Shown here piece by piece: positions 1 through 16,444 of a stretch of 18,249 bases of DNA (position 1 is the stretch's first letter; every line of letters begins with the position of its first letter). Source of the stretch: Syntrophomonadaceae bacterium (GTDB lineage Bacteria > Bacillota > Syntrophomonadia > Syntrophomonadales > Syntrophomonadaceae); contig DAOPZM010000018.1 of the NCBI GenBank assembly GCA_035353375.1, positions 37,436 through 55,684 of the forward strand, written 5' to 3'. The notes beneath the pieces were generated by a model. That model ran no database searches, was not told the origin of the DNA, and worked only from the letters and a program-made list of their open reading frames with translations. Both the position numbers and the translations under genes were made by a program.

Positions 1-549
1 ATGCCCTGAACCTGATGGAACTAAGTCATGGAGACAAGGTCGAATTTTACTATGCTGCCGGCATAACAGACCCGACTGATTTGACGGCGGTCAAGGCAGC
101 AGCAGTGGCAGCGGTGAAAACCGTGGCCTCGACCATGGACGTACTGTATGACGGGACAGTTGATTTAACACCGGATGCGACCTTCGACGTGACGGCTTAC
201 AACTCTTCTGCTTCTTATACAGTCGAAGAAACTACCCCGCTGGGAGCACTACAGGCAACCGGCTTGACCTATGGAGTAACAGATAAGAACTATGCAAGCT
301 CAGGAGCTTTGCTATTGGACAATGTAGGAACTTATCTGCGTGATAAAACTAACAGCACCTATTGGTACGCCTACGTTAATGATGTCTATAAAGACGGCTA
401 CAACAATGCTCCGGATGCCCTGAACCTGATGGAACTAAGTCATGGAGACAAGGTCGAATTTTACTATGCAGCTGGCATAACAGACCCGACTGATCTGACG
501 GCGGTCAAGGCAGCGGCGGTGGCAGCAGTGAAAACCGTGGCCTCAACAG
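1..549 (+). repeat. Intragenic direct repeat: 134-nt segment (1-134) repeated at 415-548, period 414 nt (138 codons)
   Basis: Base-by-base comparison of 1-134 with 415-548 gives 8 mismatches (positions 56, 59, 81, 101, 104, 113, 131, 134 of copy 1). All are synonymous; both copies encode the identical 44-aa string ALNLMELSHGDKVEFYYAAGITDPTDLTAVKAAAVAAVKTVAST. Confidence 0.95.
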
Positions 550-3500
550 GTGTCGCGCCAACCGACTGGACCCTTCAGCTCTCCGGAGCGAAGAATGTTT
601 CGGTTAGCAAGGCCAATTTTGAAGCCGGCCTTGCATGTGCGTCCTCAGGGCACCAGGTTTTCTGGACTGATACTAAAGATACTGATGATACCAGCGACGA
701 TGATGTCTGGGGAGGTGTGCCTCTCTGGCTGCTCGTTGCCATGGTTGATGATGATCCCGATGTTGGTTCTGAGCACTATAACTTCAATGATGATCTGGCC
801 GCTGAGAACTATGAAATTAAAGTTATAGCCGGCGACGGATGGTCCACAATCCTTGACAGTGCCGCTATTGCCCGCAGCGATGGCTATATCATTGCCAATA
901 CCCTTAACGGAGAACCGCTTCCGCTTAAAACTGAATCGGATAAAGATTGCTGGCCTCTGCAATTGAAAGGTTCAGCGATTTCCGGCGGACAGCAGGTAGG
1001 CAACATCGCTCGCATTGAACTGTCTGGCATGCCTGAACCATCTGTAGGATGGACCCTGGAAGTGGTTGGAGAAATTGGAGATACCATCACCCAGGCAGAA
1101 TTTGAAGAGGGACTGGCCTGTACCGGTTCAGGACATTACAAAGAATGGACGGATATCGATGGCAATGTTTGGTCCGGTGTGCCCCTATGGCTGTTATTAG
1201 GTGCGGTGGATAACATCGAGACAAGCAGCCACTGGACTTTTGATAATACCTTGCCGGCCAGCTATACGGTGAAAGTGGTCAATGCCGAAGGTGACTATGA
1301 AAAGACTTTTAATGGCTCGGATGTTGCCGGAAGTGATGACTATATTGTGGCTGACCAGATGAACGGTGAGCCGCTTACCGATTCATATCCGCTGCGCCTG
1401 GTAGGCGATGGAGTCACAAAAGATGATGGGTCACTGGGGGGCTTGGCTGTTGGTAACCTCGCCAGGATCGAAATCCCCGAGCTGCAGACACCGGAAGCGG
1501 AAGCAGGAAGCTGGAATCTTACATTAAGCGGGAAGATAAGCGATGTTATTGCCCAGGCTGAGTTTGAAGCTGCTCTGGCCTGCCCCGGTTCAGGACATTC
1601 CGCAGAATGGACTGACCTTGACGGTAATGTGTGGTCCGGTATGCCGCTTTGGTTCCTGACCGGCTGGGTAGACGACAGGCAGCCGCACGATTACGACGCC
1701 AATCAGGCGGCGGCTGGATATAAGGTCCTGGTGAAAGCCAGTGATGGTTACAGCGTTGATTTTGACAGCTCGGATGTTAAATGGAGCAACGAATATATCG
1801 TAGCCAACAAATTTAATGGCGATCCACTTACCGATTCATGGCCGCTGCGTCTGGTTGGAACAGGCGTCATCGGAGATGATGGTGCTCTAAGCGGTATCAG
1901 CGTCGGGAAGATCACGGAGATCGAACTGACGACTTTCGGAACTGCTGCAGACATACCCGAACTACATATCGTCAAGTATGCTGAAGATGGTACTTCTGTC
2001 CTTAATGAAATAACAATCGATTATCGGGATATGGAGAGCAATTATGATGTGATAGGAGACGGGACAACAATATACAGGTATGAAGGCATAACCAACAATC
2101 CGGAGGATGTTTGGGATGCAGCTGAGACCTATCCCGGCGGCTATAAGATTGCCAATGCCGTTAAGGGTACGCGCATAAAAGATCTTTGTGATCAGGTTGG
2201 CGGCATGGGGGCAGGGACTGAAATAGTCCTGAGTGCCGACGACGGGTACGAAACCAGGCTTCCCTACTCCTCCATCTATACCGACCCTTCAGTGCAGGAA
2301 CGGCAGGGAGATGCCATTCTGGCCTGGTGGGGAGATGGAGACTACGTACCCTATTATGCAGATGGTATGCGTTTATTATTTACTCCGGGCGGTGACCATG
2401 TCTATGGACAATGGGATATGCACGAGACGCTGCCGTCAAGCTACTGGCACTACTACTACAGCGATAATGTACAGTATCCTTCATGCGGCGGGTTATCGAG
2501 CAAGTATATTACCAATATAGAGATATATTCGGTGCCAGCGGGCGATTGGACCCTTGAACTTGATGGTACTGATATTGGCGGGTTGGAGTACGATGTAAGC
2601 AAAACTTATTTTGAATCAGCACTCGCTTGTCAGTTCGGAGCCAATCACAAGGCAACCTACACAGATACTGATAGTCATTTATGGGAAGGTATGCCTTTGT
2701 GGTTCCTGGCCGGATTTGTTGATGACGTTGACCAGCATTCCGATGAATCCTTTAATGATGAACTTGCCGAGTCCGGATATAATGTTGTGATCACCTCTAC
2801 TGATGGGGATTCGGTAACAATCAACAGCAATGACATTATCAGGAACAGCGGCTACATTGTGGCCAATTCATTAGATGGGGCTATTTTCCCCGATGCGGAC
2901 AGCAATTGGCCCCTTTGCCTGGTGGGTTCGGCGGTAAGCGGGAATAACGCTATCGCTCAGATAAAAAGCATTGAACTGGTTAAGCCTGAAGCAACGCTGC
3001 AGGATCTGACCATAAGTCAAGGAACCTTAACTCCGGCATTCGACCCGGACACATATTCCTACACAGCTGATGTGGCGAGTACAATTTCATCAGTAACTAT
3101 AAGCGCAACTGAAAATGATGGTATGACAGCATCCGGAGACATTGGCACATTTAACCTGACCAAAGGCGCCAATACTTTTGAAATTGATGTCGACGGAGGA
3201 GCCACCCATACCGATGCCACTTATACGATCATTATCACCCGGAAATCAACTGCTGCTAACGGCGGTGGCGGTGGCGGGGTAGTTGTTACTCCAACCGTAA
3301 CCGGCGTAGATGTAAAGAACGCTCCGGACAAAGTAATATACGACGAAGGCGATGCTTTGGATCTGACCGGTCTGGCGGTGACCTTGACCTATTCGAATGG
3401 AACCACCAAAGATGTTGTATGGGCTGATTTTGCTGATTATGATATCACTGTTGCACCGGAAGATGGTGCTTTATTAAAAGCAGCTGACAGCGAAATAGTT

Positions 3501-4127
3501 ATTGCCGTGAACGGTAAAACGGTCAGGCAGACCATTACAGTAAAAACAGAAATACCGGTAACACCGGAAACTCCAGTAAATCCTCCGGCAGAGGAAACAC
3601 CAGTGCTGACCGATATAGATGGCCACTGGGCGGCAGAGTATATAAAGTATCTGGTCGATATTGGAGCTGTTGCCGGGTATCCGGATAACACTTTCAAACC
3701 GGATGAGCTGGTTACCCGCGCCGAATTTGCCAAAATGCTAGTGGAAGCTTTTGGATTGACGGCGGAATCAGGCAAAATATTTGATGATACCGCAGACTAT
3801 TGGGCTAAGGATTATATCGCTGCGGCAGCTGCCCATGGAATCGTAGCCGGTTACAACGATAATGAATTTGGACCGGATGACGTAATCACCCGTGAGCAGA
3901 TTGCAATCATGATAGTTAAAGCTGCCGGGTTGGATGCAGTTGAAGGAGAATTAACTTTCGCCGATGAAGCTGATATATCCTCCTGGGCACATGATTGGGT
4001 TGTAACTGCTGCCCAAAACAAGCTGATGAGCGGTTACACAGATAACACTTTCCGCCCGCAGGATATTGCTACAAGGGCGGAGGCTGTTACAACCATTGTG
4101 AATGCATTAAAATTGTTCAAAGAATAA
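1..4127 (+). CDS. Giant S-layer-anchored multidomain surface protein, 5'-truncated by the window edge
   Basis: The frame is open from base 3 (codons 3-14 = ALNL, continuing a repeat seen again at 415); stop TAA at 4125-4127. By-eye domains: tail of one DUF4430/transcobalamin-like module (1-60) and a complete one (135-470; YWYAYVNDVYKDGY...GDKVEFYYA). Four ~140-155-aa modules carry the sulfite-oxidase/YedY Moco-domain signature (WxLxxxG ... WxGVPLW ... DGY ... NGEPL ... WPLRLVG ... IxxIEL) at 567-1028, 1050-1481, 1512-1931 and 2547-2981. One divergent module (1962-2531) is paralogous to the ORFs at 5616 and 10177. Also a cadherin-like beta-sandwich (2997-3242; LQDLTISQGTLTPAFDPDTYSYT), an Ig-like (Big) domain (3298-3543), and three SLH repeats (3606-4113). 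Confidence 0.9.
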   Translation, partial: ALNLMELSHGDKVEFYYAAGITDPTDLTAVKAAAVAAVKTVASTMDVLYDGTVDLTPDATFDVTAYNSSASYTVEETTPLGALQATGLTYGVTDKNYASSGALLLDNVGTYLRDKTNSTYWYAYVNDVYKDGYNNAPDALNLMELSHGDKVEFYYAAGITDPTDLTAVKAAAVAAVKTVASTGVAPTDWTLQLSGAKNVSVSKANFEAGLACASSGHQVFWTDTKDTDDTSDDDVWGGVPLWLLVAMVDDDPDVGSEHYNFNDDLAAENYEIKVIAGDGWSTILDSAAIARSDGYIIANTLNGEPLPLKTESDKDCWPLQLKGSAISGGQQVGNIARIELSGMPEPSVGWTLEVVGEIGDTITQAEFEEGLACTGSGHYKEWTDIDGNVWSGVPLWLLLGAVDNIETSSHWTFDNTLPASYTVKVVNAEGDYEKTFNGSDVAGSDDYIVADQMNGEPLTDSYPLRLVGDGVTKDDGSLGGLAVGNLARIEIPELQTPEAEAGSWNLTLSGKISDVIAQAEFEAALACPGSGHSAEWTDLDGNVWSGMPLWFLTGWVDDRQPHDYDANQAAAGYKVLVKASDGYSVDFDSSDVKWSNEYIVANKFNGDPLTDSWPLRLVGTGVIGDDGALSGISVGKITEIELTTFGTAADIPELHIVKYAEDGTSVLNEITIDYRDMESNYDVIGDGTTIYRYEGITNNPEDVWDAAETYPGGYKIANAVKGTRIKDLCDQVGGMGAGTEIVLSADDGYETRLPYSSIYTDPSVQERQGDAILAWWGDGDYVPYYADGMRLLFTPGGDHVYGQWDMHETLPSSYWHYYYSDNVQYPSCGGLSSKYITNIEIYSVPAGDWTLELDGTDIGGLEYDVSKTYFESALACQFGANHKATYTDTDSHLWEGMPLWFLAGFVDDVDQHSDESFNDELAESGYNVVITSTDGDSVTINSNDIIRNSGYIVANSLDGAIFPDADSNWPLCLVGSAVSGNNAIAQIKSIELVKPEATLQDLTISQGTLTPAFDPDTYSYTADVASTISSVTISATENDGMTASGDIGTFNLTKGANTFEIDVDGGATHTDATYTIIITRKSTAANGGGGGGVVVTPTVTGVDVKNAPDKVIYDEGDALDLTGLAVTLTYSNGTTKDVVWADFADYDITVAPEDGALLKAADSEIVIAVNGKTVRQTITVKTEIPVTPETPVNPPAEETPVLTDIDGHWAAEYIKYLVDIGAVAGYPDNTFKPDELVTRAEFAKMLVEAFGLTAESGKIFDDTADYWAKDYIAAAAAHGIVAGYNDNEFGPDDVITREQIAIMIVKAAGLDAVEGELTFADEADISSWAHDWVVTAAQNKLMSGYTDNTFRPQDIATRAEAVTTIVNALKLFKE
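567..2981 (+). repeat. Protein-level array of five sulfite-oxidase-fold-like modules inside the giant surface protein (four canonical, one divergent)
   Basis: Recurring WTL(Q/E)xxG ... (G/A)LACxGSGH ... W(G/S/E)G(V/M)PLW(L/F)L ... DG(W/Y/D) ... Y(I)(I/V)AN ... NG(E/D)PL ... WPL(Q/R/C)L(K/V)G ... I(E)(L/I) blocks in the translated ORF. Nucleotide identity between units is low, so these are old duplications. Confidence 0.75.
3606..4113 (+). other. Three tandem S-layer homology (SLH) domains, the cell-wall anchor of the giant protein
   Basis: Motifs LTDIDGHWAAEYIKYLVDIGAVAGYPDNTFKPDELVTRAEFAKMLV, FDDTADYWAKDYIAAAAAHGIVAGYNDNEFGPDDVITREQIAIMIV and FADEADISSWAHDWVVTAAQNKLMSGYTDNTFRPQDIATRAEAVTTIV match the classical SLH consensus (xW..xY(I/V)..a...gi..Gy.dgtF.P...iTRaE.a). 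Confidence 0.9.
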
Positions 4128-4201
4128 ATCTATATTGCTATTCGCTGCCGTCAACATGACTTTAACAGTCCGACAGCAGAAAAACACACCGGCAGCACAT
4201 G

Positions 4202-4231
4202 GGATAAGGGCGATTGACACCGCCCTTATCC
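4202..4231 (+). terminator. Perfect 11-bp stem / 8-nt loop hairpin downstream of the giant gene; possible terminator without a T-tract
   Basis: GGATAAGGGCG (4202-4212) pairs with CGCCCTTATCC (4221-4231); the loop is ATTGACAC. There is no U-run after the stem, so it is not a canonical intrinsic terminator. Confidence 0.35.
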
Positions 4232-4244
4232 TCGCTGATATAAG
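4214..4244 (+). promoter_or_regulatory. Candidate sigma-A-type promoter for the 4276-10049 operon
   Basis: TTGACA at 4214-4219 (inside the hairpin loop) and an extended -10-like TGATATAAG at 4236-4244. The spacer to TATAAG is 19 nt, which is longer than optimal. Confidence 0.3.
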
Positions 4245-4275
4245 GTGACGGGCAAAGTATTTAACGATTATCGTA

Positions 4276-5613
4276 ATGCCAAAGAACAATGGGGTGAACG
4301 AATTGACGCTGAGAAAGCAAACAGGACGGCAGCGTTCCGTACTGATTATGATATTGGTGCTGGCATTAATGACAGCGTCACCCCGGATGGTATTTTGCAG
4401 CGATAATGTTCCCAATCCGCACGGAGTTGACGGCCAATCGATAACTTTGCTTTGGGGACCGTATTTAACCAGTACTGATACCAACAGTACCGTTATTAAT
4501 GTAAAAACTGATATTGATTCAACTGTGATCGTTTATTTCGCTACAGAAGAATATTACGCTGCTTATCATACTTATAATATGAAGGCCTCTGATGGCACCA
4601 AAGGACAATTGCATCACATTGATCTTTCCGGATTGGTGCCAGGAACTGTTTATCTTTATCAGGTGAACTGCAACGGAGAAGCTACCGGAGAATTCAGTTT
4701 CGCCACGTTTCCCGCTGCAGGTAAGTTTACTTTCGCAGTTTACGGTGATACCCAGGATGAACTGCCGAATTTCAGTCAGGCTGAAAGACATAAGCTGGTA
4801 GCCGATCGTATAGCTCAGGAAGAAGAGGTGCTTTTCGTGCTTAATGTCGGAGATCTGGTGAATGACGGCAACGATGCTGCCAATTGGGACCGATATTTTA
4901 ATGCCGCACGAAATATGGCAGCAACCAAAACAGTTTTTCCTGCTCGCGGAAACCATGATGGGAATGATTTATATTACGATATTTTTGGGGTATTACCTTA
5001 TTACTCATTTGATTGTGCCGATGCCCACTTCACAATACTTGACTCGATCGACAATCCCATTGGGCAGACAGACTGGCTGTATAATGATTTGGCCAATGAA
5101 AAGGAATGGAAATTTGTTTTTTCCCACCATCCCATTTATACTTCGGAAACAAATCACTTCGGAGGGTGGGAGAACTTCAGGAATGAGTGGGAGAATATTT
5201 TCATCAGCCAGGGCGTCGATGTGGTTTGGAACGGGCATATCCATGCTTATGAGCGTTACCTGGAAAACAATATTATGTATATGGTAGTCGGTATCGGCGG
5301 CGGGCCTTACAGTACGCTCAGTACTGACAAGTACCCTGGATATCGCAACAGCCTGGAACGCAGCCTTGGTTATGCCAAAGTTACGATCGATCCTGATGCG
5401 GGTACTGCACTGGTACAAGTTGTTCGGGTCGCAGATATATCCATGGACGGCAAAATAATCACAGAACTCCCCGAGGGAACAATATTTGAAACTTATACTG
5501 TAACCTCTTCTGCAGCAGAAGACTTGAAAATAACTCCCATAGGCAGTACAGTGCTGCAGTCACTTTTTCAGTTTTTTAATAGCATCTACTATTTACTACT
5601 AAAAGGGGTGTAA
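4276..5613 (+). CDS. Secreted purple-acid-phosphatase-like metallophosphoesterase (calcineurin-like fold) with an N-terminal Fn3-like domain
   Basis: Metallophosphoesterase motifs occur in order: FAVYGDTQD, NVGDLVNDG, ARGNHD, FSHHPIY, NGHIHAYERY (compare plant PAP GHVHAYER). The N-terminal ITLLWGPYL...GTVYLYQV resembles the PAP N-terminal domain. A basic then hydrophobic N-terminus (RKQTGRQRSVLIMILVLALMTASP) suggests a signal peptide. The start is uncertain: ATG 4276 has no RBS, whereas in-frame TTG 4303 follows GGGGTGA (4291-4297). Confidence 0.85.
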   Translation: MPKNNGVNELTLRKQTGRQRSVLIMILVLALMTASPRMVFCSDNVPNPHGVDGQSITLLWGPYLTSTDTNSTVINVKTDIDSTVIVYFATEEYYAAYHTYNMKASDGTKGQLHHIDLSGLVPGTVYLYQVNCNGEATGEFSFATFPAAGKFTFAVYGDTQDELPNFSQAERHKLVADRIAQEEEVLFVLNVGDLVNDGNDAANWDRYFNAARNMAATKTVFPARGNHDGNDLYYDIFGVLPYYSFDCADAHFTILDSIDNPIGQTDWLYNDLANEKEWKFVFSHHPIYTSETNHFGGWENFRNEWENIFISQGVDVVWNGHIHAYERYLENNIMYMVVGIGGGPYSTLSTDKYPGYRNSLERSLGYAKVTIDPDAGTALVQVVRVADISMDGKIITELPEGTIFETYTVTSSAAEDLKITPIGSTVLQSLFQFFNSIYYLLLKGV

Positions 5614-5615
5614 TT

Positions 5616-6482
5616 ATGTCGAAAGGGATAATCTCGCGGTTTTGTTGCTTAGCGGTTTCAGTCGTATTTTCGCTGCTCATAACCCAGTTTTTTATGGTTT
5701 CTCCGGCATGGGGTGCGGGGGCTACGACTTCGGTGCATCTGATCAAATATGCAGCTGATGGTGTGACCGTATCAGACGAGAAAATCGTTGATTACAAATG
5801 GATGGAAAAAAACCTTAAGGTTTATGGGGACGGGAAGACTCATTATTATCACCAGGGGCCTGTATTCGAAGGAGATTTATGGGATCCGGACGAAGTCAAT
5901 AATCTTAAAGACAAAGGAGCGGTGAAGGGTACTGCAATCAAAGATTTGTGTGACCTGATCGGCGGGATGGAAACCGGCGATGAAGTGATGCTGGTATCAG
6001 TAGACAAATGGCATACGGAGTTTGCTTACAGCAATGTCTACGAACCTCTGGATATTCAAGGAGTAATTGCTCTTTGCTGGTACAATGGTGAGGATATTGC
6101 CGAGGGAGAGCGATTTGGGGTGGGATACCCGGCCAATAATGCTTATCGTACGGGACTGCAGATAGTCTTTATGCCGGAATCTGCGAACAGTGAAGGGAAA
6201 TATGTTTTCGGCAACAATGACATGAAAATAGCCTTGCCCCAGGAAAAGTACCAGCATTTTTTTGAAGGGCAATACCCGAGTACCAGCGGCCTTTCCGGCA
6301 AGTGGGTCAGTGAACTGAGAATTTACAGCGGCGGTGTTCCGGAAAACCTGATCATTGAATTAAACGACCAGCCTCCTTTAACCGAGTCTGAAAAGACTAT
6401 ACCCTGGATACCCATTATAGCAGGAGCAGTGGGGATAGTATTAGTCGGCGGGTATATTTATTTGAGGAGAAAACCAGAATGA
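5616..6482 (+). CDS. Extracytoplasmic, C-terminally membrane-anchored protein with one divergent sulfite-oxidase-fold-like module (paralogue of 1962-2531 and 10177-11358)
   Basis: RBS AAAGGGG lies upstream of ATG 5616. Signal peptide ...FFMVSPAWGAGA. Shared motifs with paralogues: H(L/I)(I/V)KYAxDG, GDGxTHYYHQGPVF, KGTxIKDLCxxxGGM, PSxSGLSxK. C-terminal TM plus basic tail: IPIIAGAVGIVLVGGYIYLRRKPE. Confidence 0.85.
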   Translation: MSKGIISRFCCLAVSVVFSLLITQFFMVSPAWGAGATTSVHLIKYAADGVTVSDEKIVDYKWMEKNLKVYGDGKTHYYHQGPVFEGDLWDPDEVNNLKDKGAVKGTAIKDLCDLIGGMETGDEVMLVSVDKWHTEFAYSNVYEPLDIQGVIALCWYNGEDIAEGERFGVGYPANNAYRTGLQIVFMPESANSEGKYVFGNNDMKIALPQEKYQHFFEGQYPSTSGLSGKWVSELRIYSGGVPENLIIELNDQPPLTESEKTIPWIPIIAGAVGIVLVGGYIYLRRKPE

Positions 6483-7060
6483 AAGATAAAATGGCCAAGG
6501 CCTTATTAATAATTGGAGTTTTGTTCATCCTGGGATCAGTACTTGTATACCTGCAGCCCTGGCAGGGGCAGGTTGATGCGGAAACCAGAAATTGGCAGTT
6601 GACTTTAGTCGGCCGTGACGGTGATGAAAAGGTGCTATCCTATAAGGATATTACCGGGCTGCCGGCTTACCAGGGCAAAGGAGGCTTTTTCTCTACGATT
6701 GGGATTGTTTATGGGCCCTATGATGCCAAAGGGGTTACCTTGGAAGAATTGTGTGAACAAGTTGGCGGGATAGTTCAGGGTGATGCAGTAATGATAACAG
6801 CCAAGGATGGTTATTCAACAGTTCTGGATTATGAGCAGGTCATGGGAGAATTTATTACTTACAATTCTGAGCTTAAGGAAGTGCCTCACCCAGAACTTAA
6901 GACCATACTGATGTATAAGCAGGACGGCAAACCATTGGCTGATGAAGACGGCAAACCGTTTAGAATTGCGGTGGTGAGCAAAGACCAGGGACTTCTGAAT
7001 GAGGGTACCTATTGGGTCAAATGGGTCAATAAAATAGAAGTGCTTAATAAAACTCCCTGA
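6479..7060 (+). CDS. Small N-terminally anchored protein with a molybdopterin-binding-oxidoreductase-like (sulfite-oxidase-fold) domain
   Basis: ATGA start/stop overlap with the upstream gene; GAGGAG RBS at 6464-6469. N-terminal TM ALLIIGVLFILGSVLVYL, then WQLTLVGRDG...LSYKDI...KGVTLEELCEQVGG...AKDGYS...DGKPL...PFRIAV...YWVKWVNKIEV, the typical layout of Oxidored_molyb-type domains. Confidence 0.85.
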   Translation: MKDKMAKALLIIGVLFILGSVLVYLQPWQGQVDAETRNWQLTLVGRDGDEKVLSYKDITGLPAYQGKGGFFSTIGIVYGPYDAKGVTLEELCEQVGGIVQGDAVMITAKDGYSTVLDYEQVMGEFITYNSELKEVPHPELKTILMYKQDGKPLADEDGKPFRIAVVSKDQGLLNEGTYWVKWVNKIEVLNKTP

Positions 7061-7081
7061 AAAGAGTAAAATCGTTAAAAG

Positions 7082-8170
7082 GTGGTCGGATTATTGTCTG
7101 CAAGAAAATGGGTGTATGCTTTTTTATTAGTGGCAATTATATTGACGGCGACAGGGTGCTCCCGAACGGATACCCGTCAGGATAACGGCAAAGTTGAGTT
7201 GAAGGTAATAATTGCCGGCAGTCTTATGGTGCCCTTTCAAGCCATTGAAAAGGAATTTGAGAGAGACAATCCGGATATAGATGTGTTGCTGGAAGGGCAT
7301 GGAAGTGTGCAGGCAATACGCTGTGTAACTGAATTGGGAGATATAGCAGACCTGACTGCTGTAGCTGATACCCAGCTTATTCCAGCGATGATGTATTCTA
7401 CCCGGATCCCCGGAAGCGATACTCCTTATGCTGATTGGCTGGTTAAGTTTTCTGCTAACCGGCTGGGGATTGCCTATAAGGATGAAAGCGCTTATTCATC
7501 CGAAATCAATGCTGATAACTGGTACGAAATAATTTCCCGGCCGGATGTATCCATCGGTCTGGCGGACCCCCGCATCGATGCTATGGGGTACCGCACCTTG
7601 ATGACGATGCAGCTGGCTGAGGATTATTACAGTGATAATACTATATTCGAAAGGACAATAGGAGATGCGTTCAATCCGCCCTTGGTTGTTTCTGAACAGG
7701 GGGGGGATTTTAACATAATTGTTCCCGAGATTGTAAAATCAAATCAATCCAGGGTTAAGCTGCGCAGTTACAGCATACAATTGATGGCGCTCCTGGAGTC
7801 AGGTGATTTAGATTATTCGTTCGAGTATGAAAGTGTAGCCAAACAACGGGGGCTCAAGTTTTTAAGCCTGCCTGAAGCGATCGACCTCAGCAGTCCGGAT
7901 TACAATAAGCAATACCGGCAGGTGGAAGTAAACCTCGACTTTAAAAGATTTGCATCTGTCATACCCAGTTTTAAAGGAACCCAAATCGTATATGGATTAA
8001 CTATACCTGAAAATGCTCAACATCCAGGCGAGGCGGAACGGTTAATAGAGTATGTTCTCAGTCCGGACGGCCGGCGCATATTCGAACAGTGCCACCAGCC
8101 GTTGTTAGCGACTCCGGTATGTGACAATGTCCAGGCCTTGCCTGAGTCTCTTCAGCCATTATTCCGTTAG
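7082..8170 (+). CDS. wtpA: Tungstate/molybdate ABC transporter substrate-binding lipoprotein, WtpA family
   Basis: Lipobox LTATGC follows a hydrophobic N-terminus. Strong by-eye similarity to archaeal WtpA proteins as I recall them: AGSLxxPF, GSVxxIRxVTELG, NWYEIxxRPDV, GYRTLMxxQLAExYY, ESGDLDYxFxYxSVAKQxG, IDLSSPDY, IVYGLTIPxNA. The start may be TTG 7094, which is 8 nt after AAGGTGG at 7079-7085, rather than GTG 7082. Confidence 0.8.
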   Translation: MVGLLSARKWVYAFLLVAIILTATGCSRTDTRQDNGKVELKVIIAGSLMVPFQAIEKEFERDNPDIDVLLEGHGSVQAIRCVTELGDIADLTAVADTQLIPAMMYSTRIPGSDTPYADWLVKFSANRLGIAYKDESAYSSEINADNWYEIISRPDVSIGLADPRIDAMGYRTLMTMQLAEDYYSDNTIFERTIGDAFNPPLVVSEQGGDFNIIVPEIVKSNQSRVKLRSYSIQLMALLESGDLDYSFEYESVAKQRGLKFLSLPEAIDLSSPDYNKQYRQVEVNLDFKRFASVIPSFKGTQIVYGLTIPENAQHPGEAERLIEYVLSPDGRRIFEQCHQPLLATPVCDNVQALPESLQPLFR

Positions 8171-8179
8171 GAGATACAA

Positions 8180-9004
8180 ATGGAAGATAACGGGCAGATT
8201 AAAAACAATTGGTTGAGTAAAATTTTTAAGCATAGTTTTACTTTTTTATTTATCATACTTGGGTTTCTGATACTGCTGTTTATATTGGTGCCCTTGTTTA
8301 AGATGGTTTTTCTCTCAGATAAGGAAGCTATGTGGTTAGCCCTTCTCGACAGTGAAACCATACAGGCGGTCTGGCTTTCCATATATGCGGCCCTGATCGC
8401 TACTGCGATTGGCTTTGTTCTGGGAGTTCCCCTTGCTTATCTTTTCGCCCGCTATGAGTTTCCCGGCAAAAACATTTTTGAAGGTTTAATAGATCTGCCA
8501 ATCGTGGTGCCTCATTCTGCAGCAGGCATAGCCTTGCTTTTTGTCTTCGGCAGTAATTTTATAGTTGGGAAAGGATTTAAGCTGTTTGGTATCCAATTCG
8601 TTGATTCCCTGGCCGGGATCATCATCGCTATGCTGTTTGTAAGTGTGCCTATCTTAATTAGTTCAGCGAAGGAAAGTTTCAGAAAGGTGGATGTACGCCT
8701 GGAAAAGGTCGCGCGTACATTGGGAGCTTCTCCCTGGCAGACTTTTTTCAGGATCTCCTTCCCTTTGGCCTGGCGCAGCATACTGGCGGGGAGCTTGATG
8801 ATGTGGGCCAGAGGTATGAGCGAATTCGGTGCGGTAATTATTCTTACTTACCACCCGACAACCGCTCCGGTCCTTATCTATGAACGGTTTGAGACTTTTG
8901 GGTTGGCGCAGGCAATTCCAGTGGCGGCTATTATGATAATCATCAGTGCTGTTGTTTTTATTGGGGTTCAAACTCTTTTACGCTGGAGGAAAAACTATGA
9001 TTAG
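8180..9004 (+). CDS. wtpB: Tungstate/molybdate ABC transporter permease (ModB/WtpB-like)
   Basis: AGGAG RBS at 8169-8173. Multi-TM protein with the ABC-permease EAA-type loop ARTLGASPWQTFFRISFPLAWRSILAGSLMMWARGMSEFGAV. Located between the SBP and ATPase genes. Confidence 0.8.
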   Translation: MEDNGQIKNNWLSKIFKHSFTFLFIILGFLILLFILVPLFKMVFLSDKEAMWLALLDSETIQAVWLSIYAALIATAIGFVLGVPLAYLFARYEFPGKNIFEGLIDLPIVVPHSAAGIALLFVFGSNFIVGKGFKLFGIQFVDSLAGIIIAMLFVSVPILISSAKESFRKVDVRLEKVARTLGASPWQTFFRISFPLAWRSILAGSLMMWARGMSEFGAVIILTYHPTTAPVLIYERFETFGLAQAIPVAAIMIIISAVVFIGVQTLLRWRKNYD

Positions 9005-10049
9005 CTTAGCTGGAGTAAACTTGCAGTTACATGGATTTGCCCTTCAGGATATCAACCTAAAAATAGACAACGGCGATTATTTCATATTGGTTGGTCCTTC
9101 AGCTTCGGGTAAAACGTTGCTATTGGAAACCATAGCTGGTTTGCACAATGTCACCTCCGGCAAAATCTGGATCGATGGCAGAGATATAACCTCATTGGAG
9201 TCGGAAAAAAGGAATATCGGCATGGTGTATCAGGATTGTGCCCTGTTTCCACACCTGACAGTCAGGGATAACATTGTTTTCGGTTTGGTTATCAGGGGGA
9301 AGAAACCCGCTGTGATTAACCGTGAACTCAAACGGATAGTGCAGCTTCTTAACATTGGGTATCTGCTTGACAGAAGACCCCATAATCTCAGCGGCGGCGA
9401 AAAACAGAAGGTGGCTTTGGCCCGGGCCCTGGTTACTAATCCGGAACTGCTGCTTCTGGATGAACCTCTGGGCGCTCTTGATCCGCAGACACGAGAGACT
9501 GTAAGGCAGGAGATCAATAAACTCCATCAGGAATTGGGTATTACCATTTTGCATGTTACCCACGATTTTGAAGAGGCGGTTACTTTAGGGACACGAATAG
9601 CAGTGATCGGGGAAGGCTCAATAAAGCAGGCCGGTCTGCCGGATGAAATTTTCCATCATCCTAATTCCAGGTTTGTAGCTTATTTCACGATGGCAGTAAA
9701 TGTATTCCCCGGAGCGGCCGAAAGGGAGAACGACAACAAAACGTTTTTTATAGTTGAAAATACCAGATTTGAAACTGAAGAAAGTATTACCGGGGCTTGT
9801 TATGCGGCCATCCGCCCTGAAAATATATTGCTCTCAAACACCTTCCCGGTAAACAATGGCCAGGGCTTTTTCACGGGGGTGATAACCGGGATTATTAACA
9901 GGGGCTCAATTATAAACATAATAGTCGATCTGCCCCCAACGTTGGTTTGCCTGCTTACCCGCAATGCATTCGAGCAAATGAATCTAACGGTGGGTCAGCA
10001 GGTGTACCTGACAGTGCCGCCATCATCAGTTTATTTATTTACAGATTAG
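8997..10049 (+). CDS. wtpC: Tungstate/molybdate ABC transporter ATP-binding protein with a C-terminal TOBE-like domain (ModC/WtpC-like)
   Basis: Walker A GPSASGKT, Q-loop, signature LSGGEKQKVALARAL, Walker B LLLLDEP and H-loop HVTHD. The C-terminal ~100 aa are TOBE-like (IRPENILL ... GVITGIINRGSIINIIVDL ... GQQVYLTVPPSSVYLF). I prefer ATG 8997 (GGAGGA at 8984-8989, 8-nt overlap with the wtpB stop) over the track start 8946, which lies inside wtpB and adds a non-homologous 17-aa leader. Confidence 0.85.
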   Translation: MISLAGVNLQLHGFALQDINLKIDNGDYFILVGPSASGKTLLLETIAGLHNVTSGKIWIDGRDITSLESEKRNIGMVYQDCALFPHLTVRDNIVFGLVIRGKKPAVINRELKRIVQLLNIGYLLDRRPHNLSGGEKQKVALARALVTNPELLLLDEPLGALDPQTRETVRQEINKLHQELGITILHVTHDFEEAVTLGTRIAVIGEGSIKQAGLPDEIFHHPNSRFVAYFTMAVNVFPGAAERENDNKTFFIVENTRFETEESITGACYAAIRPENILLSNTFPVNNGQGFFTGVITGIINRGSIINIIVDLPPTLVCLLTRNAFEQMNLTVGQQVYLTVPPSSVYLFTD

Positions 10050-10176
10050 CATTTACAGCTATAAAATCAGCTTTATTAAGAGCGCCAAATTCGAAGAACG
10101 AAAACAAGACAGCGGAAGTTTATTTTAATCGAATTTATAATTACATAAGAATCGGCTGAGGAAAGGGGGAGAAAAA

Positions 10177-11358
10177 TTGCTGAAGCACATACTGAACAGT
10201 TTATGGCTGACAAGAGTGAAGGCAATGGCCGTGATTTTATTTGTGACAGTGATAGTGATTTTACCGCAATCAACGGAAGCTGCTCCCACTACCAGCTTAA
10301 CCATAAAAAAAATGGCTGTTGACGGAAAAACAGTTCTGGCGAAAAAAACAATTGATTACCATTGGATGATGGATCCCAATAACATTCCGGTGATGGGGGA
10401 TGGTATGACCCATTACTATCATCAGGGCCCCGTCTTTGTTGATGATCCTGATCCGGATACAGAAGAAGCGCTGCGCTGGAATCCTGCGGAAGATACTAAT
10501 GTACGGGAGAAGGACATGGGAGCCCTGATGGGAACGAATGTCAAGGACCTGTGTAATCTGGTCGGCGGCATGGCTGAGCACGATACGCTGAGAATAAAAG
10601 CTCAGGACGGGTTGAGTAAACAATTTGCCTATAAGAATATATATCAATACTCAAGTCGGGAAGGACCTATGGTAATATCTTGGTACAAGGACGGTCAATA
10701 TCCTGACAGCGGATTTTCTGATGGCATGCGTCTGGTTTGGCTTGCAGACACCTCGACCAATCCGTGGGGTATCCACGTTTTTGGCAATTGGGACTGGTGC
10801 CAGGCGGCAGAAGAAAATTATTGGTACTATTATCAAAGCGGCGATGAAAAGTATCCTACAACTACCGGGCTTTCAGTGATGTTCGTCAATGAGCTGATAA
10901 TAAACAGTACTGAGCCTGTGCCTGAGGGGCCGATAGTTCCGGCGGCCGGGTTCAAGGCCGATAAGACATCAGGCTATGAACCACTGACTGTGAATTTTAC
11001 AGACCAGTCGGCAAACTCTCCGACTTCATGTGCATGGGACTTTGACAATGACGGCAGGATTGACAGTACAGACAAGAGCCCGTCCTATACCTTTGAAAGC
11101 GCAGGCCAGTACAGTGTAAAATTGACCGTGAACAATTATGCCGGCAGCGATTCTGAGGTTAAGCTGGATTACATAATAGTCGATCCTGCAAAATCCAATG
11201 AAGTTGCCAATGAAAAGCCTGCTCCATTGGAGCAGGAGAAACCTTCGCCTGATACGAATAAAAAACAATTTGACTATGCAAAAAAGGTGTTCATTCCGGC
11301 TATGGTGATTATTGCTCTTGGCCTGGGAATAATCCTGCTTAGAAAGAAGGACAGGTAA
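10177..11358 (+). CDS. Extracytoplasmic membrane-anchored protein: divergent sulfite-oxidase-fold-like module + PKD domain + C-terminal TM anchor
   Basis: TTG start at 10177 preceded by GAAAGGGGGAG. Signal peptide ...ILPQSTEAAP. Paralogue motifs: GDGMTHYYHQGPVF, GTNVKDLCNLVGGM, YPTTTGLS. PKD domain at ~10948-11185 (PLTVNFTDQS...WDFDNDG...SPSYTFESAGQYSVKLTVNN). C-terminal TM plus basic tail: IPAMVIIALGLGIILLRKKDR. Confidence 0.85.
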   Translation: MLKHILNSLWLTRVKAMAVILFVTVIVILPQSTEAAPTTSLTIKKMAVDGKTVLAKKTIDYHWMMDPNNIPVMGDGMTHYYHQGPVFVDDPDPDTEEALRWNPAEDTNVREKDMGALMGTNVKDLCNLVGGMAEHDTLRIKAQDGLSKQFAYKNIYQYSSREGPMVISWYKDGQYPDSGFSDGMRLVWLADTSTNPWGIHVFGNWDWCQAAEENYWYYYQSGDEKYPTTTGLSVMFVNELIINSTEPVPEGPIVPAAGFKADKTSGYEPLTVNFTDQSANSPTSCAWDFDNDGRIDSTDKSPSYTFESAGQYSVKLTVNNYAGSDSEVKLDYIIVDPAKSNEVANEKPAPLEQEKPSPDTNKKQFDYAKKVFIPAMVIIALGLGIILLRKKDR

Positions 11359-11514
11359 TATAAATTGATATTAGCAGGGATATATTGAGACATAAATGCA
11401 AATTCAATTTGACAACAGGCAGCAAATATTATTTGTTTACCAACTCTGTTTAAGAGAAAAGGGTTCGTACAAGTGGTGATTAATAAAATGTAATCACGGC
11501 TGCCGGTTTTTATC

Positions 11515-11549
11515 AATCCGAACGTACCTTATATAAAGGAGTTCGGATT
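11515..11549 (+). terminator. Stem-loop in the intergenic region downstream of the PKD gene; possible terminator or RNA structure
   Basis: AATCCGAAC (11515-11523) pairs with GTTCGGATT (11541-11549). An inner CCTT/AAGG pairing (11527-11530 / 11536-11539) extends it. A TTTTTT run occurs only at 11562-11567, so it is not canonical. Confidence 0.3.
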
Positions 11550-11655
11550 ATTTGTCGGAGGTTTTTTCAAAACCGTGATACTTTTTTATGGCTTAGAAAA
11601 TGTTCAAACATTTCACCATTATTCGAAGTGGATTATGGTCATCCAAAAAAAACGG

Positions 11656-11699
11656 TTACATTTTGAATGAAATGTAAAAGCTGTTATTTCAGTTATAAT
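11656..11699 (+). promoter_or_regulatory. Perfect 8-bp inverted repeat plus consensus -10 box upstream of the RyR gene
   Basis: TTACATTT (11656-11663), 6-nt spacer TGAATG, AAATGTAA (11670-11677). TATAAT at 11694-11699. There is no good -35 hexamer; the right arm of the repeat sits where -35 would be. ATG at 11755 is preceded by AAGGAG. Confidence 0.35.
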
Positions 11700-11754
11700 A
11701 GTATCAAAGAAACAATGAATCAAGTAATCAATCAATATTTAAGGAGAATACCAT

Positions 11755-12039
11755 ATGGCTTATAAACCTGAACCGATCAACACTTCCAGTATTCAATTGA
11801 ATGACGGCATAAAGGAACTTACAGAACTATTGGCTGAAAATGCCCATGATATCTGGGCTCTGCAGCGCATGAGTGATGGATGGGTTTACGGGAGAAAACG
11901 CAATGATGAAAAAAAGGAACATCCCTGTTTGATTGCTTATGAGCAGTTACCCGAAGCGGAGAAAGAGTATGATCGTAAAATAGCAATGGAAACAATAAAG
12001 GTTATTATTGCCCTGGGATATCGAATCGAAAAAGCATAA
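11755..12039 (+). CDS. Stand-alone RyR (ryanodine-receptor repeat) domain protein, 94 aa
   Basis: Strong AAGGAG RBS. Near full-length match to the RyR repeat consensus as known from animal RyR channels: P-x-P-(I/V)-(N/D)-TS-x-I-x-L ... LAEN-x-H-x-x-W ... GW-x-YG ... R-x-D-x-x-K-x-HPCL ... LPE-x-E-x-x-YD ... ETIK-x-x-x-ALGY. Confidence 0.9.
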   Translation: MAYKPEPINTSSIQLNDGIKELTELLAENAHDIWALQRMSDGWVYGRKRNDEKKEHPCLIAYEQLPEAEKEYDRKIAMETIKVIIALGYRIEKA

Positions 12040-12096
12040 CCCGGGATATATTTAATGAAGAATATTTGATATTTTGCTTTTTGGGGGGAGAGGCAA

Positions 12097-15000
12097 ATGG
12101 ACAATATTGTAAAATGGCATTCCCAGGGCATATTCATCTCCAGTACTTTTCGGGATATGCATGCCGAAAGAGGGTATCTGCAGGACATCGTATTTCCCGA
12201 GCTGGAGAAGAGACTGAGAGAAAGCGCTTATCCATATCATATCGAACCCATCGATCTGCGCTGGGGAGTAGAGACTGCCGGGCTTAATGAACAGCAGCAA
12301 AAAGAAACAGAAGTATTGAAAGTATGCCTGAACGAAATCGAGCGCAGCCGCCCCTTTATGATCGTCCTGCTGGGTGACCGCTATGGCTGGGTACCACCGG
12401 CAGTCAATATCAAAAGAGCCATAGAAGGCACCGGCTATTCCTGTGATATAAACGGGCGAAGCGTTACCGCCCTGGAAATAGAATACGGCATCCTGAACTC
12501 ACTGGCTGAATATAAACGCTGCTTCTTCTACTTCCGCAACCCCCTGCCTTATGAAAACATGCCAGCGAATACAGCCGCCAGATACAGTGACCGGTACAAT
12601 CCTGATGAGCAAGCCAGCTATCCCAAACTGCAGGCATTAAAACAGCGCATCAAAGAAACCGGCCATGGACCGGTCAGAGAATATTGGGCGGACTGGAACC
12701 AGAGCGATCAGGAAGTCAGCGGGCTGGAAGCATTCGGAGATCTGGTAACTGAAGACCTGTGGCAGGCTATACAGGAAGAATGCCGGAGAACGATAGAAGA
12801 ACAGCCCCGGACCTGGCAGGAAGAAGAACAATGGCTGCTGGAACAATACATAGAAAACCGGTATCCATACTATCACAGCGCCAGCCTCATTCAGCAGCAG
12901 ATGGCAGCCAGCATCCGTCAGCAAGCAGTTCAGAGCCTAAAAGACTTCCTTTTATCCCCGCCGGGATCAGGTACAGCCAGAGGAATATGTCTGGCAGGAG
13001 AACCCGGGGCCGGCAAAAGCACCTTGTTTGCCCGTCTCTGCCGGGAAATGCAGCAGGAAGATGTATTGATACTGGCCCATGCCGGAGGCATCGGCAGCCG
13101 GGCCGGAAACAGCCAGACCATGCTGCGCCTGTGGATACAAGCCATGAATAAATTTCTCGGTCTAAAGGATACCTCAGACTCACTTGATACCCGCAAAGAA
13201 ACAGAAGATACCTTCGCCGAACTGTTGTCCCGCTCTGCAGTCAAAAAACGGGTCATAGTAATGATAGATGCCTTGAATGAATTTCAGGACAGCCAGGCTA
13301 AGTACCTCACCTGGCTGCCGGAGATATGGCCAAATAATGCCCGCTTGCTGATCACCACCATTACCGGCGCCGAACCGAAAGTGCGCAACCTGGAAATCAA
13401 GTACCTGGCAGCGTTGACAAAAAACGAAGCAACAGCCGTTTGCCAGGTAATATGCAGCCGTTATCACAAAACCCTGAATTCCCAGGTCGAAAAAATCATA
13501 TTATCCCATAAGCATAATGATCAGCCCTCATACGGCAATCCCTTGTGGATCCAGTTAGCCATCAATGAGATACTCACCCTGGACGAAGATGATTATGCCC
13601 GCCTGGAAAAAGATGAACTTCAGGGAACCGCCGAAGCAAGACTGCTGTCCATGCTGCTCGATACAGCGCAAAAACTGCCCCCGGATGTTCCCGGACTGTA
13701 CCAGTCCCTGACCGAAAAACTGGAGAACCTTTTTGGAGCGTCCCAGGTAAAAAGCCTATTAAGCCTGATTGCCGTCAGCCGCATGGGACTACGCGAAAGC
13801 GATCTTAAACAGCTGGTACCCGTAATGACCGGGGAGGCTTGGCAGGACCTGACCTTTGCCCGGATAAGAAACTATCTGGGAAGTCATCTGGTGCAGAGAG
13901 GGACAGAAAACCTGTGGAACTTCTTCCACCAGCAAGCCAAAATATCAGTCATGAACCGTTATCTGAAAAACGAAGCCGACTTAAAAAACCTCCATGCCGT
14001 AATCGCCGCTTATCTGGAAACCCTCACCCGGCAAGATCCCTTAAGGATCAACGAAATCATGTACCACTATATCCATGCGGATGACAAGCTAAAAGCTGCC
14101 AAATATTACGGTGCATACGATTTAAATGACCAGGAAATCCAGGGTGCTGCTCAGGCTCTGGCCAGCCATATCATCAATAACAGCCACGATGAAGCTCTGG
14201 AGTGGGTCTGCAGCCTGCTGCAAAGTCCGTTATCAGCGGATGAAATATGTATAATAGCAAATCACAATAACGCTTATTTGCTCACATATCTTGAGCACTT
14301 CGTAAGCCTTGCTGATCAGACTGTTTTACTTAATACGGCTAAGACTGCCCTTATTAAGATTGTTGATGAGCATTCCGATAATTTAATCTATAGGCGAAAT
14401 CTTTCTGTTAGCTACGACCGGCTGGGCAGAGCAGAAGCTACCCGGGGCAACTGGGCAGGAGCCCGGCAGTATTACCAGAACAGCCTGGAAATCAGAAAAG
14501 AACTGGCCAAGCTTTACCCGGACAATGCAGAATATAGGCGGGAACTATTCGTAAGCTACGATAGGCTGGGTGAAGTGGAAGAGACCCGGGGCAACTGGGA
14601 AGGAGCCATGCAGTATTACCAGGATAGCTTGAAAATTATTAAAGAATTGGTCAGGCTTTATCCGGATAATACCCAATACAAGCGGGATCTATACATAAGC
14701 TGCCAGAAGATGGGCGGAGTGGCAGAACCCCGGGGTAACTGGGAAGGAGCCCGGCAGTATTATCAGGACAGCCTGGAGATGATAAAAGAACTGGTCAATC
14801 TTTTCCCGGATAGTACTCAATACAATCAGGATTTGTCCATAGGGTACAACAGGTTGGCCAATGTGGAAGAAACCCGGGGCAACTGGGAAATAGCCCGGGT
14901 ATATTATGGGGACAGTCTGGAAATTACAAAAGAACTAGTCAGGTTTTTCCCGGAAAATGCTCGGTTCAAGTGGGATTTGTCCATAAATTATATCAATCTG

Positions 15001-16403: not shown

Positions 16404-16444
16404 TAAACACATAATTTTACTATTCAAAACAAGGAGTGTTTAAA

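Follow-up and report, generated by a model that had tools for sequence, protein, structure and literature searches.

Why should domains with the fold of sulfite oxidase be displayed, in several copies, on surface proteins that are encoded around a tungstate/molybdate importer? The question is raised by a stretch of 18,249 nucleotides (nt) from a Syntrophomonadaceae bacterium (assembly GCA_035353375.1, contig DAOPZM010000018.1, positions 37,436 to 55,684 of the forward strand), which is referred to as the window in the following. Its nt 1-11358 hold eight genes, all on the plus strand: those of a giant protein with S-layer homology (SLH) domains, an extracytoplasmic phosphoesterase, three smaller module-bearing proteins, and the three components WtpA, WtpB and WtpC of an ATP-binding cassette (ABC) importer (Table 1; open reading frames, ORFs, are named by their first nucleotide). 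We found that the modules share the sulfite oxidase (SUOX) fold, leave the cell by the Sec route, and are joined to wtpA in a gene order that is kept from Bacteria to Archaea. On these grounds, we consider it probable that the cluster is an accessory of tungsten and molybdenum (W/Mo) acquisition, which would work by capture or relay at the cell surface.

The window contains eight SUOX-fold modules, at essentially the positions given in an initial annotation made from the sequence alone. BLASTP sorted them into three subtypes, namely four modules of type A, three of type B and one of type C. All four type A copies belong to the giant protein and share 34-54% identity with one another (E 1e-23 to 1e-49). 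Type B comprises one copy in the giant protein, ORF 5616 and ORF 10177, with identities of 35-39% (E 1e-34 to 1e-42), and type C, represented by ORF 6479, has only a 38-amino-acid (aa) motif in common with type B (E 1e-6 to 1e-8). The initial annotation had set apart the divergent B group, whose motifs GDGxTHYYHQGP and KGTxVKDLCxxVGGM are real and conserved across type B, but its scheme of two subtypes had to be replaced by one of three.

The fold assignment draws on several levels of comparison. The Pfam model Oxidored_molyb (PF00174, cut-off 24 bits) matched the giant protein with 52.4 bits over module A2, A2 alone with 27.2 bits, and ORF 6479 with 43.9 bits; tested as single modules, A1 and A3 remained below the threshold, and A4 and type B gave no match. 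Profile alignments by hhalign connected B to C (98.2%, E 6e-14) and A to C (92%, E 6e-7), and the direct alignment of B to A was not significant. When searched against the PDB, the type C profile matched plant sulfite oxidase (1ogp, E 6e-5) and the type A profile matched SorA (2blf, E 7e-4), both via the region NGxPL..G.PLRLvvPG...VKW. Only profiles reached sulfite oxidase; single-sequence searches of the PDB with ORF 6479, ORF 5616 and the module region returned nothing significant. The type B profile did not match any PDB sequence, and the fold of this type is therefore assigned through its hhalign alignment to type C and through an AlphaFold model examined with Foldseek.

For this structural comparison with solved structures, one type B protein (ORF 5616) and one type A module (A2) were modelled with AlphaFold, which yielded predicted local distance difference test (pLDDT) values of 83.3 and 86.2 and predicted template modelling (pTM) scores of 0.83 and 0.84, respectively. 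The four top matches of the B model were the PruR structures 7kom, 7rkb, 7kp2 and 7kou, followed by SorA and YedY, and the A model retrieved PruR (7kom, E 2.9e-5) and chicken sulfite oxidase (1sox, E 2.9e-4), with a Foldseek probability of 1.0 for both models and an identity to the matched PruR structures of just 7-18%. All three module types share the SUOX fold, and the resemblance to sulfite oxidase and YedY that had been proposed for them was borne out. According to the predicted structures, their nearest solved relatives are the small, secreted and non-enzymatic PruR proteins, and not the enzymes of this fold. PruR carries a secretion signal, lacks the Mo-ligand cysteine, and binds pterins other than the molybdenum cofactor (Moco) in a truncated Moco pocket (PMC11194511).

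Beyond the window, more than 876 homologues of ORF 5616 were found, many of which are fused to type C; about 20 of the 120 homologues listed are such B-C fusions, arranged as B, two transmembrane helices, C. Among 1.84 billion representatives, the type B family forms 588 clusters at 50% identity. ORF 6479 shows 100% identity to a protein from a Syntrophomonadaceae metagenome-assembled genome. Type A modules occur alongside dockerin domains (PF00404; P0165, P0171) and directly after type C in tandem in several fragments (e.g. P0186, P0193). The names given to these proteins in databases (P0023, P0032, P0121 and related entries) are misleading: a type B protein is labelled 'argininosuccinate synthase', and type C proteins and B-C fusions that lack the cysteine are listed as 'molybdopterin-dependent oxidoreductase' or 'DMSO/TMAO reductase YedYZ catalytic subunit'.

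Given their fold, the modules could be genuine extracytoplasmic enzymes of the sulfite-oxidase/MsrP type that use Moco or the tungsten cofactor and whose synthesis is tuned by a riboswitch, which is how Regulski et al. (2008) viewed the sulfite-oxidase-like genes of S. wolfei. Such a function would agree with the Oxidored_molyb matches, with database names such as 'molybdopterin-dependent oxidoreductase', with a type A cysteine that is conserved at about the right place, and with the fact that riboswitches of this kind do precede genes of cofactor-using enzymes (PMC2408646). The export route, however, does not fit. All module carriers have Sec-type signals or single-pass membrane anchors that place their ectodomains outside the cell, with a cleavable signal peptide and a C-terminal transmembrane helix in type B and an N-terminal transmembrane helix in type C. 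No twin-arginine translocation (Tat) signal was found in the carriers of the window, and of 298 complete module-bearing ORFs from 80 related loci, the three that fit a loose RR pattern all seem to have over-extended starts. Furthermore, the alignments of B and C show no conserved cysteine in the hairpin, and the CAGNRR of sulfite oxidase corresponds to GGFF(S/T)T in type C. Neither the window nor the related loci that were read were found to encode a dimerisation domain or a redox partner such as haem b5, cytochrome c or an MsrQ-like protein. The domains match PruR in their small size, and S-layer-anchored proteins carry them as tandem repeats. An enzymatic role would also leave the tight coupling to wtpA unexplained. 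We therefore judge it very improbable that the modules are Moco enzymes, and A, B and C are probably binding modules. In this respect our analysis agrees with the initial annotation, which had located the modules outside the cell, had seen no twin-arginine motif and had argued on this basis against ordinary Moco enzymes; the argument holds with the Sec signals, the missing Tat signals and the missing Mo-ligand cysteine of B and C.

The conserved residues of the three types give hints at what might be bound. Among 140 complete type A modules, Cys30 is conserved in 84%, His35 in 94%, Asp41 in 99%, Asp60 in 100% and Asp61 in 99%. This set looks like a metal or cofactor site, and its cysteine and histidine sit, as judged by sequence position only, in the loop that holds the Mo-ligand cysteine in SUOX enzymes. 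By eye, type C shows an invariant DGY, GP(Y/F) and the tryptophan of a C-terminal VKW, type B shows D(G/K)W and GKW, and type A lacks the C-terminal tryptophan. The motifs of B and C are suggestive of the residues that line the pterin pocket of PruR, which are Asn102, Tyr104 and Trp160 in A. tumefaciens, where a PW motif stands in place of the cysteine (PMC11194511). A haem-binding reading of the Cys-His motif of type A was also considered and dropped: CxxCH occurs in one homologue only (P0165).

The arrangement of the modules next to the importer is not a peculiarity of the window. A type B profile run over one genome per GTDB species gave 426 confirmed matching stretches. Linkage was counted in the best 80 of these, which come from 38 bacterial and 42 archaeal assemblies, with gene presence scored by tblastn using the proteins of the window. 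Type C directly followed type B in all 74 loci with room for it. The gene wtpA came directly after type C on the same strand in 65 of 70 loci and within 2.5 kilobases (kb) in 68 of them, and the co-localisation with an oxyanion transporter proposed from the window extends in this way to other genomes. A phosphoesterase homologue was present in 58 of the 80 loci, type A in 50, wtpB together with wtpC in 42, and the DUF4430-like repeat described below in 33. Altogether, 236 B, 160 A and 79 C modules were counted in these loci, about six for each locus, and many of them are part of very large proteins anchored to the wall. The architecture A-A-A-B-A was seen again at least 13 times, and B-A-A-A-B-A five times. 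The bacterial carriers belong to Syntrophomonadaceae, Dehalococcoidia, Anaerolineales, other Chloroflexota and Moorellaceae, and the archaeal ones to Bathyarchaeia, Methanomicrobiales (including the cultured Methanocorpusculum parvum), ANME-1/Methanophagaceae (ANME, anaerobic methanotrophic archaea) and GoM-Arc1/Argoarchaeum. Further carriers available in culture are Syntrophomonas wolfei and Methanoculleus.

This recurrence also bears on whether the modules are merely structural or adhesive building blocks of the S-layer, with a wtpABC neighbourhood that reflects nothing but shared regulation or operon history. The company in which the modules are found, comprising PKD, Big, cadherin-like, SLH and dockerin domains, is typical of surface scaffolds and would suit such a role. 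Nevertheless, we consider it improbable, given that the order B, C, wtpA is kept across Bacteria and Archaea, that type B copies from the two domains of life are 55-80% identical, and that natural B-C fusions exist. Control by a cofactor-sensing riboswitch (see below) and the many invariant polar and aromatic positions of the modules likewise speak against a purely structural function.

We next turn to the importer. Its binding protein was identified correctly as WtpA: ORF 7082 scores 309.8 bits with TIGR03730 (cut-off 242.75) and aligns to the A. fulgidus ModA/WtpA (2onk) with an E value of 6e-70. For WtpB and WtpC, NF040839 and NF040840 were the best matches, yet the scores are below the respective cut-offs (304.6 vs 340 and 363.3 vs 440 bits). 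The tight coupling noted for ORF 4276 through wtpC was confirmed, with adjacent genes either overlapping or separated by gaps of no more than 21 nt. The binding pocket of WtpA is altered. In A. fulgidus ModA/WtpA, Asp153 and Glu218 are presumably the two carboxylates that coordinate the metal in the octahedral site of class III binding proteins (Hollenstein et al.), an assignment that agrees with the chain offset. Asp153 is invariant, and position 218 holds a serine in place of Glu in the WtpA encoded here as well as in 66 of 67 homologues linked to the cluster. In addition, Ala68, which lies beside the anion-binding GS loop, is a histidine in 67 of 68 cluster-linked WtpA, and position 276 is an arginine in 67 of 68 (homologues from L009-L088). 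With these substitutions, the cluster-linked WtpA form a distinct subfamily, the coordination chemistry or ligand species of which probably differs from that of the crystallised WtpA/ModA.

Regulation of the cluster points to the same metals. The operon starts upstream of the window, on a longer stretch of the source contig (L089; Joint Genome Institute, JGI, metagenome 3300010352, Ga0116247_10000131) that was reached via the phosphoesterase gene. A scan with the Moco riboswitch model RF01055 (gathering score 36) found two aptamers ahead of the operon on the same strand, at L089 250-370 (80 bits) and 443-560 (50.4 bits). The tandem lies about 5.1-5.4 kb upstream of window nt 1 and at least 216 nt upstream of the first gene of the operon. 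The stronger aptamer has no P3 stem in the printed alignment; the weaker one may likewise be P3-less, as inferred from its length of 118 nt only. P3-less aptamers were reported to correspond near-perfectly with tungsten-cofactor metabolism, to precede tungstate-transport genes in Clostridia and to occur in tandem copies in Syntrophomonas (Regulski et al. 2008, PMC2408646). In the same study, two S. wolfei genes for a 'putative Moco-utilizing sulphite oxidase' behind such RNAs were listed as unexplained exceptions.

Of the 21 bacterial loci scanned, 12 contain a riboswitch of this family, and in five loci (L011, L013, L024, L026, L027) it is located 100-270 nt upstream of the ORF with type A modules. 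Because both P3-less forms (L013, L027) and P3-containing forms (L024, L038, L053) occur, different organisms may use the system for tungsten or for molybdenum. In the syntenic locus L004 of a related organism (region 16174-18397), a second riboswitch, whose length of 120 nt suggests a P3-less form, stands directly before a gene that encodes a Shr-like haemoprotein-interacting domain (HID, 96.6 bits) and three SLH domains. It is followed by the gene of a 1790-aa fn3/HID protein, and both may belong to the same regulon.

Cofactor-free exported domains, their multiplicity on anchored proteins, the strict synteny with the lipoprotein of an importer, a cofactor-sensing riboswitch and hosts that are strict anaerobes rich in W/Mo enzymes together lead us to infer a starvation-induced capture or relay of W/Mo. 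The idea of a capture or scavenging apparatus that feeds the importer, put forward in the initial annotation, thereby gains support from fold, linkage and riboswitch, although ligand binding by the modules, the relay and the role of the phosphoesterase are still deduced from sequence. In the proposed sequence of events, the operon would be switched on when the tungsten or molybdenum cofactor runs short. Modules A, B and C would serve as Sec-exported, cofactor-free ligand binders in the manner of PruR, and the wall-anchored copies would capture, on the outside of the cell, a ligand that carries W/Mo. The ectodomains of B and C, anchored in the membrane beside the lipid-anchored WtpA, would hand the metal over to it, and WtpBC would bring it into the cell.

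The ligand might be free tungsten or molybdenum cofactor, in which the metal is bound by a pterin dithiolene, or fragments of it that are released from biomass. The phosphoesterase could then attack the phosphate or pyrophosphate of the cofactor, by which tungstate would be freed for WtpA. We hold this pterin-bound version tentatively and favour it only slightly over a bare oxyanion. To our knowledge, Moco and pterins are the only ligands known for the SUOX fold. The conserved phosphoesterase implies a phosphorylated substrate, and the cysteine and histidine retained by most type A modules would be in line with a ligand of the pterin type. By analogy, so would companion modules that are known from cofactor-scavenging systems, including the Shr-like HID and SLH gene behind its own riboswitch in L004. 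A more far-reaching variant would be extracellular salvage of W/Mo cofactors in strict anaerobes (syntrophs, Dehalococcoidia, methanogens and ANME), with capture of free or protein-released pterin-dithiolene-bound W/Mo, or possibly of a secreted 'tungstophore' of the pterin type, by apo-SUOX modules on wall and membrane, dismantling by the phosphoesterase and takeover by a WtpA with the Ser/His pocket; we regard this variant as doubtful.

The phosphoesterase itself, ORF 4276, combines a Pur_ac_phosph_N domain with an N-terminal signal or anchor and with all the Metallophos motifs (GD, GNHD, HHP and GHIHAYER); in the PDB, plant purple acid phosphatases come nearest to it (E 2e-16). In an alignment read by eye, the tyrosine ligand of these enzymes is replaced (GDLSY to GDLVN). 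Since it lacks this Fe(III)-binding tyrosine, ORF 4276 is to be regarded as a metallophosphoesterase that resembles purple acid phosphatases, and not as a true member of the family.

Alternatively, the same apparatus might handle the bare oxyanion, i.e., tungstate, molybdate or their thio-forms in sulfidic habitats, with the modules and the dimetal site of the phosphatase-like protein binding the anion, concentrating it at the wall and passing it to WtpA, and with no part played by a pterin. Several findings are in favour of this possibility: the sole importer is an oxyanion ABC system, its remodelled pocket (Glu218 to Ser, Ala68 to His) could suit another anion species, type A offers an acidic/Cys/His cluster (C30, H35, D41, D60, D61), and there is no pterin transporter among 144 neighbouring ORFs. 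Purple acid phosphatases bind tungstate and molybdate at their dimetal site as inhibitors, and plant members of that family are the nearest PDB relatives of ORF 4276. On the other hand, we know of no SUOX-fold protein that binds an oxyanion unless Moco is present. The residues conserved in B and C, among them a single invariant arginine in type C, are for the most part aromatic or acidic and do not resemble known oxyanion pockets, and a catalytically intact phosphoesterase would be left without an obvious job. On balance, a bare oxyanion as the ligand seems to us possible but rather unlikely.

The similarity to PruR raises a further alternative, in which B and C would be sensors that bind a pterin, excreted or from the environment, and modulate the activity of WtpABC or of another partner, and thus signal instead of capturing a ligand. 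PruR provided the top structural matches, and it binds a pterin before docking on the periplasmic domain of a membrane protein (PMC11194511). Nevertheless, the window and the related loci read did not yield a DcpA-like, GGDEF, EAL or histidine-kinase gene for such a partner. B and C possess a single anchoring helix and no cytoplasmic domain, and about six modules per locus, many of them on huge wall-anchored proteins, fit capture better. We consider a sensory function of these proteins to be improbable.

Several observations weigh against our main interpretation or qualify it. The only importer in the cluster has a binding protein of the oxyanion type, and its variant WtpA appears to lack one of the two metal-coordinating carboxylates. 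Since the WtpA of P. furiosus has a very high affinity for tungstate by itself, it is not evident why additional capture modules should be required. In nine of the 21 bacterial loci, no riboswitch was found in the flanks scanned; that of the window locus itself came up only after an extension by 1.3 kb. One clear exception to the linkage is a Bathyarchaeum locus (L043), which has B and C but neither wtpA nor another transporter within 9 kb, and archaeal loci often have wtpA beside C yet no adjacent wtpBC. Screening of the 144 further neighbouring ORFs did not reveal a recurrent pterin transporter, molybdopterin-synthesis gene or regulator. Finally, the repeats of the giant protein, annotated initially as transcobalamin-like DUF4430 modules, stay below the threshold for this assignment and support cofactor scavenging only weakly: PF14478 scores 18.4 bits on the repeat of the window (cut-off 23.8) and matches one of 16 homologous repeats, and the repeats have no match in the PDB.

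The layout of the locus is summarised in Table 1. With the upstream DNA included, the operon on the plus strand comprises the tandem riboswitches, a B+PKD+SLH protein (L089 776-2977), the giant SLH protein, the phosphoesterase, the membrane-anchored B and C proteins, WtpA, WtpB and WtpC, and a B+PKD membrane protein. The giant gene starts at L089 3121, which is 2494 nt ahead of window position 1, and encodes 2206 aa with a Sec-type signal peptide (N-terminal start MDNLIKKTLGILLVAFMLLITVVLSPAEA). Its domains are, in order, B, PKD, a Cys-less A, PKD, three 138-aa repeats, A-A-A-B-A, a cadherin-like domain, Big_3 and three SLH domains. Two further modules of this protein, one B and the Cys-less A, are hence encoded upstream of the window, and the preceding gene holds another B. 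The DUF4430-like repeats are encoded by a 414-bp (base pair) unit that is present 3.0 times at 97% identity (L089 4915-6158, equal to window -699 to 544), and the window begins inside this array. Near-identical repeats of this kind are prone to collapse or expansion in assembly.

Table 1. Genes, modules and other features in nt 1-11358 of the window, with the evidence for each assignment.
Feature	Position	Strand	Evidence or remark
Giant SLH protein, C-terminal 1374 aa of 2206 aa	1..4127	+	Frame open to nt 1; Pfam SLH (three), Cadherin-like, Big_3, Oxidored_molyb
Tail of second DUF4430-like repeat copy	1-134	+	
Third DUF4430-like repeat copy, 138 aa	135..548	+	PF14478 E 0.003, 18.4 bits, below cut-off
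Type A module A1	549..1031	+	BLASTP to A2-A4; PF00174 E 0.011
Type A module A2 (modelled copy)	1032..1484	+	PF00174 27.2 bits alone, 52.4 bits in whole protein
Type A module A3	1494..1937	+	54% identity to A2; PF00174 E 0.0011
Type B module within giant protein	1950..2537	+	36% identity to ORF 5616, E 3e-36
Type A module A4	2538..2987	+	34-40% identity to A1-A3
Cadherin-like domain, Big_3 and three SLH domains	3000..4124	+	Pfam
Metallophosphoesterase, purple-acid-phosphatase-like, extracytoplasmic	4276..5613	+	Pfam Metallophos and Pur_ac_phosph_N
Type B protein: signal peptide, ~210-aa ectodomain, C-terminal transmembrane anchor	5616..6482	+	hhalign, AlphaFold, Foldseek
Type C protein: N-terminal transmembrane anchor and SUOX-fold ectodomain	6479..7060	+	PF00174 43.9 bits
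WtpA-type substrate-binding lipoprotein, variant subfamily	7082..8170	+	TIGR03730 309.8 bits
WtpB-type permease	8180..9004	+	NF040839 304.6 bits, below cut-off 340
WtpC-type ATPase with TOBE	8997..10049	+	NF040840 363.3 bits, below cut-off 440; Pfam ABC_tran and TOBE
Signal peptide, type B module, PKD, C-terminal transmembrane anchor	10177..11358	+	BLASTP to ORF 5616 39%, E 1e-41; Pfam PKD_4

Some gene boundaries require comment. The start of wtpC follows the JGI gene call (ATG at 8997), and the mechanical ORF begins at a GTG at 8946. The public call of ORF 5616 begins at 5694 and thereby loses a signal peptide that is present in all homologues. The JGI/public call also starts the phosphoesterase at 4387 and adds a 53-aa ORF (4245-4406) over the intergenic region. 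An equivalent of ORF 10177 is also present in locus L004. A consensus scan of nt 1-12200 gave no excess of promoters or terminators over the shuffled expectation and no terminator in the intergenic gaps.

Downstream of the cluster, window 11755-16167 encodes a 94-aa RyR-domain protein and a 1356-aa DUF4062-NACHT/AAA-TPR protein in which a highly similar unit of ~42 aa is repeated about 13 times. The latter resembles STAND NTPases, is unrelated to the finding described here and is missing from L004. The housekeeping gene pdxS (16436-17317), coding for the lyase subunit of pyridoxal 5'-phosphate synthase (NF003215, 512 bits), marks the end of the island. Among the 144 neighbouring ORFs of related loci, DUF364/DUF4213 ('putative heavy-metal chelation') was seen in six and TrmO_N in five, probably in methanogen loci (L049-L088).

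What would such a system mean for its hosts? Enzymes that depend on W/Mo, for example formate dehydrogenase, formylmethanofuran dehydrogenase and aldehyde oxidoreductases, are responsible for the central redox reactions in syntrophy, methanogenesis, organohalide respiration and the anaerobic oxidation of methane and alkanes. In sulfidic anoxic habitats, both metals are in short supply or hardly accessible. Present models of how W/Mo is taken up end at the binding protein of the importer; the surface set would add an unstudied capture layer in two domains of life, and might bear on the trace-metal dosing of anaerobic digesters. If the cofactor itself were the ligand, this would be a new kind of metal acquisition and the first cofactor-based W/Mo acquisition system in prokaryotes, and salvage would assign a second, non-signalling role to PruR-like proteins. 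Our interpretation would also account for the sulfite-oxidase-like 'exceptions' of 2008 in the riboswitch regulon, correct the widespread annotation of these proteins as 'molybdopterin-dependent oxidoreductase', show that apo-SUOX binders of the PruR class reach far outside Proteobacteria, and set apart a WtpA subfamily whose coordination chemistry is changed.

The individual parts of the cluster, namely the SUOX fold and PruR, WtpABC and the Moco riboswitch, are known. Their combination is apparently undescribed, in that no description of the cluster was found in the full-text literature searched (with subscription-only papers outside its coverage), and the nearest prior remark is the note on S. 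wolfei from 2008. In that description of the Moco riboswitch regulon, the sulfite-oxidase-like genes were taken to encode enzymes that use Moco, and neither the large surface proteins nor the phosphoesterase or the B-C pair were counted among its members (Regulski et al. 2008, PMC2408646). PruR from Agrobacterium, Vibrio and Klebsiella (7kou, 7kom, 7kp2, 7rkb; PMC11194511) resembles B and C in being a small, Sec-secreted SUOX-fold domain without Mo-ligand cysteine or enzymatic partner domain. However, PruR is a single soluble signalling protein and has been described only in Proteobacteria, together with the cyclic di-GMP enzyme DcpA. In contrast, the modules studied here are anchored to the membrane or S-layer, are often arranged in tandem, occur in monoderm bacteria, Chloroflexota and Archaea, and share their loci with wtpABC, a phosphoesterase gene and a Moco riboswitch; moreover, type A mostly keeps the cysteine.

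As shown by the PF00174 and profile matches, the modules are also homologous to the SUOX molybdoenzymes, including sulfite oxidase, SorA, YedY/MsrP and the Moco domain of plant nitrate reductase. They differ from these enzymes by a shorter hairpin, by Sec export in place of a Tat-dependent or cytoplasmic route, by the lack of a dimerisation, haem or MsrQ partner and, in B and C, by the missing Mo-ligand cysteine. With the characterised WtpABC systems (WtpA of P. furiosus; ModA/WtpA-ModBC of A. fulgidus, 2onk), the importer shares the type of permease and TOBE-domain ATPase as well as Asp153, whereas it deviates in the replacements of Glu218 by Ser and Ala68 by His and in the scores of WtpB and WtpC below cut-off. 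We know of no accessory proteins of the characterised WtpABC systems. In its overall layout, the cluster appears analogous to the Isd/NEAT haem relay. In the Isd and Shr systems of Gram-positive bacteria, starvation-induced, wall-anchored proteins with repeated binding modules pass their ligand inward to the lipoprotein of an ABC importer. The two arrangements differ in fold (NEAT vs SUOX), in attachment (sortase vs SLH or transmembrane anchor), in control (Fur vs riboswitch) and in the ligand.

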